Positions 2,752 through 5,635 of a stretch of 64,000 bases of DNA are shown here, piece by piece. Position numbers and translations under genes: made by a program. The notes beneath the pieces were generated by a model. The model was not told where the DNA came from, made no database searches, and was given only the letters and a program-made list of their open reading frames with translations. The stretch is from Alphaproteobacteria bacterium. GTDB lineage: Bacteria > Pseudomonadota > Alphaproteobacteria > Rs-D84. The stretch lies in assembly GCA_017618175.1 (NCBI GenBank), contig JAFZUT010000023.1, forward strand, positions 10,996 through 74,995, given 5' to 3'. How positions within the stretch are numbered: position 1 is the stretch's first letter; every line of letters starts with the position of its first letter.

Positions 2752-3765
2752 ATGAACAAGAGATTTTTATTTTGTATATTGGGAATGATTTTAACATTGC
2801 CGGCATATGCGGACCCGGTCACAGTGACCAGTCGTGATTACGTAGATACCACGGTTGGTGCCCGTCAAAACAAGATTGCGGCCGGTACGGGCGACCGTGT
2901 TGTGACATATTCGACAACGGCGGGCCAAATCGGTTCGCGTGCGATATTGGATGATTTAACCGGCACAACAACGACGGATACAAACCTGACCACCGCCGAG
3001 GTAGCCGAGAACGCAATATACAGTAAAAATCAAGAGGTGTTAAATATTGGTGCACCAAATGTTTTGACATACAGCGGTAATGCCGGCACATTGACATCGA
3101 CCCCGATATATGATTCAACGTTGAACACGTTTTCCAATGGGTTGGTTGATGCGGGAACGTTAAATACCGCAATGACAACGGCGGCGAACGATGAAATGAC
3201 ATGCGCCGAATATGCAACACCGGGTGATGCGACCACGGAATGTATATTATGGGAAATAAATACATCCGCCACGGCGCCATTGACCACAACGGCGTATTTA
3301 CCGGCAAATATCGCTGGAACATCGTATTGTTATAAATCGCATGACGCCAGGTATAATGGTCGTAATCAATGTTCTACGACAATGTATAATGCGTTTAACG
3401 CGGGCGAATGGGGCACGGTATTCCCGTATGGCGAGGTCAGTGGTATAAGTGTATGCAGTAATATCGAACCATCAATAAAATATGAATATGATTGGGGCAA
3501 TTCTTATCCATACCAGGTATCAACGAATCAAAGCGGTGTGCAATCACAATACGATGCGTGGGTCAGTGGCGGTCGCCCAACAACACCCGTTGGCGGGTAT
3601 TGTTATTGCAAACTGACCAATCCATCTGTTGCGGGTGCGCGTTGGGTGTTCCGGTACTCGCGCTCCGTTTCGGTCTGTGCGTCCTACTGTGCGATCAACT
3701 GCGCGTTCAACGTCCAGGCCTACGCCGACTTCCGTGGGGCCGTCTTCGGGGGTGTCGCGCAATGA
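2752..3765 (+). CDS. DGR target protein: secreted fibre-like protein (paralog B) with a C-terminal variable region
   Basis: 337 aa with signal peptide ...LPAYA/DP. TVTSRDYVD, VTYSxxAG repeats and a C-x11-C-ILW motif are shared with paralog A. An extra ~140-aa C-terminal domain has VR as its last 44 codons. Confidence 0.9.
   Translation: MNKRFLFCILGMILTLPAYADPVTVTSRDYVDTTVGARQNKIAAGTGDRVVTYSTTAGQIGSRAILDDLTGTTTTDTNLTTAEVAENAIYSKNQEVLNIGAPNVLTYSGNAGTLTSTPIYDSTLNTFSNGLVDAGTLNTAMTTAANDEMTCAEYATPGDATTECILWEINTSATAPLTTTAYLPANIAGTSYCYKSHDARYNGRNQCSTTMYNAFNAGEWGTVFPYGEVSGISVCSNIEPSIKYEYDWGNSYPYQVSTNQSGVQSQYDAWVSGGRPTTPVGGYCYCKLTNPSVAGARWVFRYSRSVSVCASYCAINCAFNVQAYADFRGAVFGGVAQ
3627..3758 (+). repeat. 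DGR variable repeat (VR)
   Basis: Matches TR at a constant offset of +326 with no indels. 117/132 positions are identical, and all 15 differences lie opposite TR adenines. Confidence 0.95.
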
Positions 3766-3792
3766 TGTTATCGCAGACCGTAAACCTTTTCC

Positions 3793-3830
3793 GCATATCA
3801 CGCACCGGAGAATCCGGTGACGTGATATGC
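3793..3830 (+). promoter_or_regulatory. Strong hairpin/cruciform ~35 bp downstream of VR (candidate DGR target-recognition structure)
   Basis: GCATATCACGCACCGGA-gaa-TCCGGTG(a)CGTGATATGC: 17-bp stem with one bulged A and a 3-nt loop. Flanked by the direct repeat CCGTAAACC (3778-3786 and 3830-3838). Confidence 0.6.
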
Positions 3831-3952
3831 CGTAAACCGTCACCGTGTGTGCGCGCGCAATGTGCGCGCATGCACGGTGTCATAAAAAATTCCCAATACG
3901 GGAATAGGCTGTATCGCCGTATCCAGTTGGTGGCCCTTTGGGTGGCCTGTTT

Positions 3953-4084
3953 TGTTGCGGGTGCGCGTTGGGTGTTCCAGAACTCGAACTCCGTTTCGAA
4001 CTGTGCGAACAACTGTGCGAACAACTGCGCGAACAACGTCCAGAACAACGCCGACTTCCGTGGGGCCGTCTTCGGGGGTGTCGC
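3953..4084 (+). repeat. DGR template repeat (TR), non-coding template for mutagenic retrohoming
   Basis: 25 adenines, comprising 11 AAC codons, 2 CAG and 1 GAC in the VR frame. 15 are substituted in VR. Contains three tandem 12-bp units TG(T/C)GCGAACAAC at 4002-4037. Confidence 0.95.
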
Positions 4085-4296
4085 TCCTTGGGATTGTGAA
4101 TACAGGGAAAACCTTTTGCCAACCTGCGGGACAGTGCCATGGCACTTTTATGCCTTTGGATAAACATCATCAAGGCGGGGGGGTATAGCCTGAGCCCCGG
4201 TTGTATGACCGGTGTGCCAAATACAAAACGTAGGGGATGTTTGGGCCAGTAGTTTGTTCTGTATCGTGACGAACGCCCGGAACATCCAATAAAAAA

Positions 4297-4629
4297 ATGA
4301 CTTTGGATGAAATAGAAAAATTTAGTAAGACCGAATGCCCGCGATTTTCGCAATTTGCCCGGGAACAGTTGCCTATGCCCGGTGTAAAAAAATACCTGAA
4401 TGATATCTTGAATCGCGAAATATTCGTCACAGATTTCAAAATTACAAAATCTAAACGCAAAGAGGGAACAGAATGTATGCAATTCCAATTTAAGTTGGAT
4501 AATCAGGTATGTGTCGCATTTACCGGCAGTGCCGTTTTGATGGACCAGATGCAATCTGCACGTGAAAATGACAAAATTCCCTTTGTGGGAACAATAGTCA
4601 AAATAGATAAATATTATTCTTTTTCTTGA
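4297..4629 (+). CDS. DGR accessory protein candidate, 110 aa, not recognisable as Avd
   Basis: ATG 4297. Stop lies 4 nt before the RT start, suggesting translational coupling. The sequence alternates hydrophobic and polar residues (strand-like, e.g. FVTDFKITKSKRKEGTECMQFQFKLDNQVCVAFTG), is near-neutral, and I recognise no four-helix-bundle Avd pattern. Confidence 0.6.
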   Translation: MTLDEIEKFSKTECPRFSQFAREQLPMPGVKKYLNDILNREIFVTDFKITKSKRKEGTECMQFQFKLDNQVCVAFTGSAVLMDQMQSARENDKIPFVGTIVKIDKYYSFS

Positions 4630-4633
4630 ATCA

Positions 4634-5635
4634 ATGAAAACATATAAAAATCTGTGGGATAAATTTATATCCGTTGAAAATTTCGAACTGGCCGCGCGTC
4701 GCGCCGTTAAAAGTAAAAAATCAAAAAAATCTGTGCAATATTTCTTGGAACACAAAGATGAACTGATTCAAAAACTGCGAACCAGTTTAATTAACGGAAC
4801 ATTCAAAACATCACAATATAAAATATTTACAATATATGAACCCAAAAAACGCGAAATATATAAATTGCCACTGTATCCCGACCATGTCCTGCATCATGCA
4901 TTGATAAATATCCTGGGGCCGATTTGGCAGAAAATGTTTATTCATGATTCATACGCATGTATCCCCGGGCGTGGATTACACGCCGCATCGCGCCGGACCA
5001 TGGATTTTGTGCGCAGAAATAAATATGTGTTGCAATGTGATATTCGTAAATTCTATCCAAGTATAAATCATAAAAAAATGATTGGGATTATCGCGCGTAA
5101 AATTCATGATAGGCGAATATTAAAAATACTGAAAGAAATCGTTTTTTCGGTCGGTGGCGAAACAAATTTGCCCATTGGAAATTTGACCAGTCAATGGTTG
5201 GGAAATGTGTACTTGAACGAACTGGATTATTTTGTAAAGCATATATTACATTGGCGTGACTATATACGGTATTGTGATGATTTTTGCCTGTATGGAAATA
5301 ACAAACATCAATTAAAATATATGTTAAGTAATGTAAAACGGTTTATAGAAATAAATTTGTTCATGTCTTTTTCACGAACAATTGTTCGTGAAACAAAAAA
5401 TGGAGTAGATTTTATTGGTTATCGACATTTTAGAAAATTTGTGTTGTTGCGGAAAAAATCGGCACTAAAAATAAAACGCAGAATATCAAATATAATCAAG
5501 TATCATGATTGGTCTGGACATTGTGTCGGGCAAATTGCCGCCGCATATGGATGGTTGAAATGGGCATGTACATACAACCTTAGAAATAAAATTTGTCAAG
5601 AAAAATGTGGACTTTTTGATTTAATGATAATATAA
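4634..5635 (+). CDS. DGR reverse transcriptase
   Basis: 333 aa with RT motifs: PLYPDHVLHHAL, LQCDIRKFYPSI, the DGR-typical IGNLTSQWLGNVYLNELD, catalytic YCDDF, and FIGYRHF. Confidence 0.92.
   Translation: MKTYKNLWDKFISVENFELAARRAVKSKKSKKSVQYFLEHKDELIQKLRTSLINGTFKTSQYKIFTIYEPKKREIYKLPLYPDHVLHHALINILGPIWQKMFIHDSYACIPGRGLHAASRRTMDFVRRNKYVLQCDIRKFYPSINHKKMIGIIARKIHDRRILKILKEIVFSVGGETNLPIGNLTSQWLGNVYLNELDYFVKHILHWRDYIRYCDDFCLYGNNKHQLKYMLSNVKRFIEINLFMSFSRTIVRETKNGVDFIGYRHFRKFVLLRKKSALKIKRRISNIIKYHDWSGHCVGQIAAAYGWLKWACTYNLRNKICQEKCGLFDLMII

Follow-up and report, generated by a model that had tools for sequence, protein, structure and literature searches.

An alphaproteobacterial diversity-generating retroelement without Avd encodes a candidate accessory protein of a widespread, unannotated family next to a conserved structured RNA

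A complete and genuine diversity-generating retroelement (DGR) is encountered in a chromosomal setting at positions 2752-5635 of a 64,000-nucleotide stretch of an Alphaproteobacteria bacterium genome (assembly GCA_017618175.1, contig JAFZUT010000023.1, forward strand), which is referred to here as the window. Between the template repeat (TR) and the reverse transcriptase (RT) gene of this element lies an open reading frame (ORF) of 110 amino acids (4297-4629), and the name ACC is used for this ORF as well as for the protein family to which its product belongs. This paper describes the distribution, predicted fold and genetic linkage of ACC, as well as the RNA structures that flank the TR. The data indicate that ACC would, with reasonable probability, act as an accessory subunit of the DGR ribonucleoprotein (RNP), replacing the accessory protein Avd in one class of Avd-less DGRs. 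What is new is a putative DGR accessory subunit that belongs not to Avd but to a widespread and unannotated family, together with the defined structured RNA that accompanies it.

The retroelement combines adenine-only differences between the TR and the variable repeat (VR), a DGR-type RT adjoining the TR, and a VR positioned in the 3'-terminal part of a coding target gene. The VR and TR differ at 15 of their 131 positions, and all 15 mismatches are located at TR adenines, while the RT aligns end to end with the RT of phage BPP-1 (bRT) as present in the cryo-electron microscopy entries 8ub7-8ube (E 2.5e-43). No Pfam match to Avd (PF05635, PF22296), HRDC, or MutS_I was obtained among the 118 ORFs of 85-175 aa that are contained in the window. 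A preliminary description of this DNA, made from the sequence by itself, had reported the lack of Avd and had called the architecture non-canonical; the former is upheld by this search, and DGRs without Avd had already been described (PMC5758913). The same description had correctly located the 110-aa ORF and its end 4 nt before the RT start (ATG at 4634), and had given the exact length of the TR-to-ORF spacer (4085-4296, 212 nt) and the exact position of a 14-bp palindrome within it. The small non-coding gap between target stop and TR was also recognised, although its length is 188 nt (3766-3953) rather than the 187 bp mentioned.

The ACC ORF is a genuine gene that evolves under purifying selection. 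A word-indexed search recovered 72 full-length homologues (48-96% identity), nearly all of which are 108-110 aa long, and the alignment contains 20 invariant columns. The ratio of non-synonymous to synonymous substitution rates (dN/dS), determined pairwise over 30 orthologues, had a median of 0.195, with values of 0.09-0.39 whenever the window copy was one of the pair; the number of homologues and this ratio rule out a spurious ORF. Searches of Pfam (E up to 1), NCBIfam and PDB sequences yielded no match for ACC, and the only match in PHROG was a marginal one to the unannotated phrog_19665. The protein has an isoelectric point (pI) of 8.43, with 17 lysine and arginine residues against 15 aspartate and glutamate residues, which makes it mildly basic and near neutral and agrees with the roughly neutral charge proposed before; the family mean is about 8.2 (8.1-8.3), within a range of 5.0-10.1. 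A full hidden Markov model search with the ACC profile against 1.84 billion representative proteins identified 787 clusters (50% identity) at E <=1e-3, and 297 at E <=1e-10, most of which represent proteins of 94-110 aa. Judged by these sequence comparisons, ACC is a large and unannotated family without counterpart in Pfam, NCBIfam, or PDB, and the presence of phage and archaeal-virus members among the 787 clusters rules out a lineage-specific Enterousia gene.

The linkage between ACC and the RTs of DGRs is close to obligate. Of the 71 Enterousia-type ACC loci, all but L010 contain an RT (70 loci), and in 59 of these 70 the RT gene starts 0-31 nt after ACC. A second set consisted of 24 viral contigs from IMG/VR, which were found with a motif derived from a four-sequence alignment of distant ACC members; 17 of them carry an RT directly upstream of ACC on the same strand, and an Mtd-like target gene lies upstream in another two. 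The presence of TR/VR pairs with adenine-specific differences was verified for about 40 Enterousia-type loci and for nine phage loci. The order of the genes varies, since siphophage contigs display the order target-ACC-TR-RT, in which ACC occupies the classical Avd slot, and the RT precedes ACC in a Bacteroidales chromosome and in the archaeal viruses ANMV-1 and vir525. A tblastn search of GenBank phages with two family members (P0080 and P0108) gave matches in two archaeal viruses only. Moreover, natural fusions exist in which RVT_1 proteins carry a C-terminal ACC domain (P0091, 507 aa; P0183, 414 aa; and P0141). In the AlphaFold model of P0183 this domain has the same fold as free-standing ACC, with a predicted local distance difference test score (pLDDT) above 90, and is preceded by a low-confidence linker (residues 286-310). 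RT proteins also rank first (E 2e-7) when the ACC model is compared by Foldseek with BFVD, a collection of predicted viral structures. No member of the Avd family was detected among the 96 small ORFs that neighbour ACC on the same strand in 25 phage and other loci. The survey of co-occurrence with DGR RTs that the preliminary description had advised thus gave a very strong association. Its suggestion that the ORF could be a new class of accessory factor is supported in so far as ACC is an RT-linked, non-Avd family. The protein is not confined to this locus, as the family is broad and includes a gene of the published ANMV-1 DGR.

Several individual members and loci deviate from the common arrangement. 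In the 233-aa protein P0120 an acidic N-terminus is followed by a tandemly duplicated ACC domain, and in P0176 and P0154 a short N-terminal piece of an RT is joined straight to ACC, which may reflect deletions or assembly artefacts. A decaying element was encountered in locus L010 (5749-6628), which retains an intact spacer RNA and an intact ACC but has a remnant ORF of 92 aa in place of the RT. In the viral loci L083 and L084 (2652-4291), the gene ahead of ACC encodes an Mtd-like tail fibre (Pfam mtd_2nd, E 4e-18), and no RT is found within 4 kb on either side. Three metagenome-assembled genomes (MAGs) each harbour two ACC-type DGRs that are located apart from one another, on different contigs (L058 and L064, L025 and L066, L055 and L068), showing that some small genomes maintain more than one DGR of this type. 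Finally, locus L037 has one TR and two VRs (2791-2921, 4168-4218, and 5045-5175) with adenine-only differences, which indicates two target genes per template.

An AlphaFold2 model of ACC, built on an alignment of 61 sequences, had a mean pLDDT of 89.9 and predicts that three short helices at the N-terminus precede a beta-beta-beta-alpha-beta-beta arrangement (H3-7, H17-24, H34-37, E41-51, E59-67, E70-76, H79-90, E96-103, and E106-109). The five predicted strands coincide with the strand-like stretches noted earlier in the sequence. Their order, beta1-beta2-beta3-alpha-beta4-beta5, is that of the oligonucleotide/oligosaccharide-binding (OB) fold, and the same order is present in the model of the RT-fused homologue. 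Foldseek comparison with the PDB gave weak matches (best E 0.026, query-normalised template modelling (TM) scores of 0.34-0.41), and the top neighbours are mostly OB domains, including RuvBL DII, HIN-200, hSSB1, RPA70N, and the B subunits of AB5 toxins. An OB-like fold, which had been raised as a possibility beforehand, is supported for the modelled protein by its topology and the nature of its structural neighbours, without significant superposition. No Avd structure was present among the PDB fold matches, and hhalign comparison of the ACC family profile with the BPP-1 Avd protein (bAvd, Bbp7) returned a probability of 0.2%, in agreement with the earlier remark that the ORF lacks the Avd pattern. 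The other known accessory proteins were considered as well; an HRDC identity was rejected since the HRDC match is absent for ACC and for every small ORF (85-175 aa) of the window, and an MSL identity was rejected since ACC has no MutS_I match and the window has no avd, which always accompanies the MutS-like MSL gene (PMC5758913).

The spacer between TR and ACC is a conserved, covarying structured RNA. In an alignment of 17 sequences (A6), 87% of the cells at predicted pairs can pair, compared to 30-48% in slid controls, and 25 pairs show compensatory changes; moreover, the structure score was reached by none of 500 shuffles. The relatives share invariant blocks, such as GCYAACCUGYRGGACA, and the palindrome forms the top of a conserved hairpin (AAAGUG/CACUUU), of which the stem GUG/CAC is replaced elsewhere by GCG/CGC or GUA/UAC. 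A covariance model of the element (R1) detected it in 48 further Enterousia-type loci at E <=3e-20, with weaker matches in L037, and always immediately downstream of the TR, including in the loci that have their TR at another place (L051 and L015). The only one of the other Enterousia-type loci searched in which R1 gave no match was L040, in which ACC starts 140 nt from the contig end and the spacer is cut off. No matching family was found for the spacer RNA in Rfam. In line with the earlier suggestion that the spacer may correspond to the RNA region that primes cDNA synthesis in known DGRs, it behaves as a functional 3' RNA part of the element. Besides the local helices, a long-range duplex brackets the TR, which is 95% paired over 24 loci with compensatory changes at 8 of its 13 pairs (slid controls 39-57%), and which is also predicted by folding of the single sequence. 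A pseudoknot in which the 3' end of the TR (CCUUG) would pair with the first hairpin loop of the spacer was considered and rejected as drawn, as only 51% of its cells in A6 are paired. Another hairpin, CAGAUG/CAUCUG (window 4149-4172, A6 columns 109-136), is missing in the window copy and in its closest relative (L005), and is kept in nearly all other Enterousia-type spacer RNAs.

The overall plan of this RNA resembles that of the BPP-1 DGR RNA, which comprises the avd 3' end, the TR, and the spacer Sp (8ub7-8ube). In BPP-1, the stem-loop directly after the TR binds Avd and the long 3' stem-loop binds bRT (Handa et al., bioRxiv 10.1101/2023.10.23.563531). The cPRT Stop duplex averages 13 bp in a survey restricted to DGRs with Avd homologues (Handa et al., bioRxiv 10.1101/2023.10.23.563531). 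Likewise, a long-range duplex of about 13 bp brackets the TR of the window, a stem-loop region is located just after the TR, and a long interrupted stem-loop is positioned at the 3' end of the spacer. The two RNAs nevertheless have no sequence similarity, and the Enterousia-type spacers are longer (212-340 nt versus 140), contain an extra multi-helix domain with the closing helix CCUGC/GCAGG, and are followed by ACC instead of directly by the RT gene. The window locus thus shows a BPP-1-like overall RNA plan in an element that lacks Avd.

Taken together, these observations lead us to propose that transcription probably proceeds from a position upstream of the TR (about 3889) through the TR, the structured spacer, ACC, and the RT gene, and that ACC and RT would be translated from their adjacent cistrons. 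ACC would then bind the RT and the folded RNA that flanks the TR, holding the RNA on the RT as the pentameric Avd does in phage BPP-1. Template and primer would thereby be placed in the RT active site for cis-primed, adenine-mutagenic synthesis of cDNA, which would subsequently replace the VR in the target gene. An Avd-replacing role of ACC is favoured because its linkage to the RT persists through three gene orders and in distant hosts, because natural RT fusions occur, and because Avd is absent wherever ACC was found, i.e., in the window and in the 25 sampled phage and other loci. It is favoured further by a predicted fold of a type often seen to bind nucleic acid, by the BPP-1-like RNA scaffold, and by the homology of the window RT to bRT over its whole length. 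A broader proposal, that of a second, Avd-independent type of DGR RNP in which a monomeric or RT-fused OB-like subunit and a differently built spacer RNA replace the Avd barrel in a substantial share of the accessory-less DGRs, is in our estimate as liable to prove wrong as right.

Several points weigh against the proposed role of ACC in the RNP. The protein is only mildly basic and its family has a wide spread in pI, compared to a mean pI of 9.5 +/- 0.7 for Avd (Wu et al. 2018, PMC5758913). The OB assignment leans on the modelled topology and on the weak PDB matches given above. Covariance model R1 found nothing convincing in the ACC-bearing phage loci and in BPP-1 (best E 0.35), and its silence in the former leaves a co-evolution of the protein with this RNA element unsupported. 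In addition, ACC is found without an RT within the flank in L083/L084, L092, and L095, and the RT has been lost in L010. Lastly, a predicted OB fold could equally bind single-stranded cDNA, so that ACC could act after reverse transcription. In such a downstream role ACC would resemble a single-stranded DNA-binding protein (SSB), coating or protecting the mutagenised cDNA or aiding its annealing or integration at the VR. This is in line with the OB-like topology, with BFVD neighbours that include phage proteins named 'SsDNA binding protein', and with the DNA-binding OB domains of hSSB1, RPA70N, and HIN-200 among the PDB neighbours. Group II intron RTs have their DNA-binding domain at the C-terminus, which is the place taken by ACC in the fused RTs. 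All of these structural matches are weak, however, Avd-type DGRs do without a dedicated SSB, and the absence of Avd wherever ACC occurs suggests that ACC fills the role of Avd. A downstream function is therefore regarded as rather unlikely, but the RNP-scaffold and single-stranded DNA roles are not mutually exclusive.

The loci that keep ACC without a nearby RT (L010, L083, L092, and L095) could also be explained if ACC were a passenger, or a regulator (of RT expression, for instance), that is inherited together with DGR RTs and stands outside the retrohoming machinery. Passengers seldom stay linked through so much rearrangement, whereas the linkage of ACC spans Alphaproteobacteria, Bacteroidales, bacteriophages, and archaeal viruses in three gene orders; together with the in-frame RT fusions and the strong purifying selection on ACC, this makes such an explanation improbable. 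Still far less credible is a highly diverged Avd that would assemble as a pentamer of four-helix bundles. ACC is similar to Avd in size and takes its position in some phage cassettes, and the ORF drawn as 'Avd' in the ANMV-1 DGR, according to the legend of Fig. 1b of its description (PMC4372165), is probably an ACC homologue. A divergent Avd is rejected, however, on the basis of the profile comparison with bAvd, by the lack of any match to PF05635 and PF22296 in Pfam at E values up to 1, by a confident model with five beta strands and only short helices, and by the absence of Avd among the fold neighbours.

Like Avd, ACC is a small protein encoded within DGR cassettes adjoining TR and RT, in some phages exactly in the Avd slot, and it likely works together with the RT and with structured RNA that flanks the TR. 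The two differ in that ACC has no sequence or profile similarity to Avd, is predicted to consist of alpha-helices and an OB-like barrel instead of a four-helix bundle, is less basic (pI about 8.2-8.4 versus 9.5), and also occurs as a C-terminal fusion to the RT. A survey of DGRs found no avd homologue in 26% and no accessory gene in 29% of them, and proposed that 'Lineage 3' DGRs work independently of Avd (Wu et al. 2018, PMC5758913), and the LMMB DGR of crAssphage is another Avd-less example (PMC7290462). The window element has in common with these DGRs (Architecture A, Lineage 3; crAssphage LMMB) the order target-VR-TR-RT and the lack of avd, and differs from them by the conserved extra gene ACC, which could be the missing factor. 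Other recurrent non-Avd genes of DGR cassettes, to which ACC is comparable in this respect, are CH1, MSL, HRDC, and the potential accessory genes PAG1-4. CH1 also occurs exclusively in avd-less DGRs, but its description as an acidic protein (pI 4.7) of 160-169 aa (PMC5758913) sets it apart from the shorter and mildly basic ACC; HRDC has its own Pfam domain (PMC5758913). One of PAG1-4 (Wu et al. 2018) might be an early sighting of the ACC family.

A member of the family is present in the DGR of the archaeal virus ANMV-1 (KP703175), the first archaeal DGR that was described (Paul et al. 2015, PMC4372165). This 98-aa homologue (AJP62065.1; pI 9.1, 11.4 kDa) is encoded right after the RT and is 44-48% identical to P0080 and P0108; the element differs from that of the window in its order, RT then ACC, and the protein is labelled as hypothetical in GenBank. 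The figure legend cited above mentions an 'Avd' ORF. In the gap between target and RT, GenBank lists a 64-aa coding sequence (3708-3902 in locus L074) that overlaps the TR (3698-3805) and is probably not a gene. Given this overlap, and the pI and mass of the homologue, the 'Avd' ORF of the drawing probably corresponds to the ACC homologue, which would have been named by its size and charge. Labelling as 'Avd' on the basis of size and charge alone can thus mislead, with ANMV-1 as a probable example. Full-text literature searches retrieved no paper that describes the ACC family or a DGR in Enterousia.

How DGRs without Avd perform reverse transcription has been a question since the survey of Wu et al. 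(2018), and ACC provides a concrete and testable candidate for the partner involved. If the proposal is true, an ACC-type RNP would explain a substantial share of the accessory-less DGRs in bacteria, phages, and archaeal viruses. Moreover, the RT, the 110-aa protein and the structured RNA make up a compact three-part system of gut bacteria, whose reconstitution could serve structural work or the development of DGR-based targeted mutagenesis tools, and the ACC profile offers a new marker for the annotation of DGR cassettes.

The features of the cassette are listed in Table 1.

Table 1. Coordinates of the DGR features in the window.
Feature	Position	Strand	Details
DGR target gene	2752-3765	+	ORF; 337 aa, signal peptide, variable C-terminus, VR at 3' end
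VR	3628-3758	+	Inside target ORF; 131-nt ungapped match to TR
Two 17-bp GC-rich hairpins, VR-TR gap	3793-3830 and 3841-3879	+	DNA fold z-score -5.9
5' segment of DGR RNA: small hairpin	3889-3905	+	Upstream of duplex strand 3906-3918
TR-bracketing duplex, 13 bp	3906-3918 with 4179-4191	+	Alignment A9, 24 sequences
TR	3954-4084	+	131 nt, 25 A
Structured spacer RNA (Sp equivalent)	4085-4292	+	RNAalifold, pair counts, covariance model R1
Spacer closing helix	4123-4127 with 4230-4234	+	CCUGC/GUAGG; closes multi-helix domain
Palindrome hairpin	4133-4146	+	14-bp AGTGCCATGGCACT
Spacer helix	4152-4156 with 4172-4176	+	RNAalifold
3' long hairpin	4235-4246 with 4275-4287	+	Best-supported helix; 8 of 12 pairs compensatory
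ACC gene (110 aa)	4297-4629	+	Stop at 4627-4629; putative DGR accessory protein of a new family, predicted N-terminal helices and OB-like barrel
DGR RT (333 aa)	4634-5635	+	RVT_1; phrog_1423 E 8e-95

The genes around the cassette have housekeeping functions and encode a GluRS fragment, an HlyIII-family protein, ThrRS, and a SPOR protein. The nearest loci elsewhere were found in gut and rumen MAGs labelled as Alphaproteobacteria or Candidatus Enterousia. The target ORF, which encodes a secreted protein, has no Pfam match. The product of an ORF at 1864-2613, of which the likely start is Met63 (nt 2050), is paralogous to the target over the latter's first 170 residues (37% identity, E 1e-30). The signal peptide and a TSRDYVD motif are common to both, but the ORF has no variable repeat and is thus a non-diversified sibling gene immediately upstream of the target. 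The two hairpins in the gap between VR and TR have equivalents of similar strength and other sequence at the same place in 15 related loci, and may function as a BPP-1-like target-site hairpin or cruciform, or as terminators.

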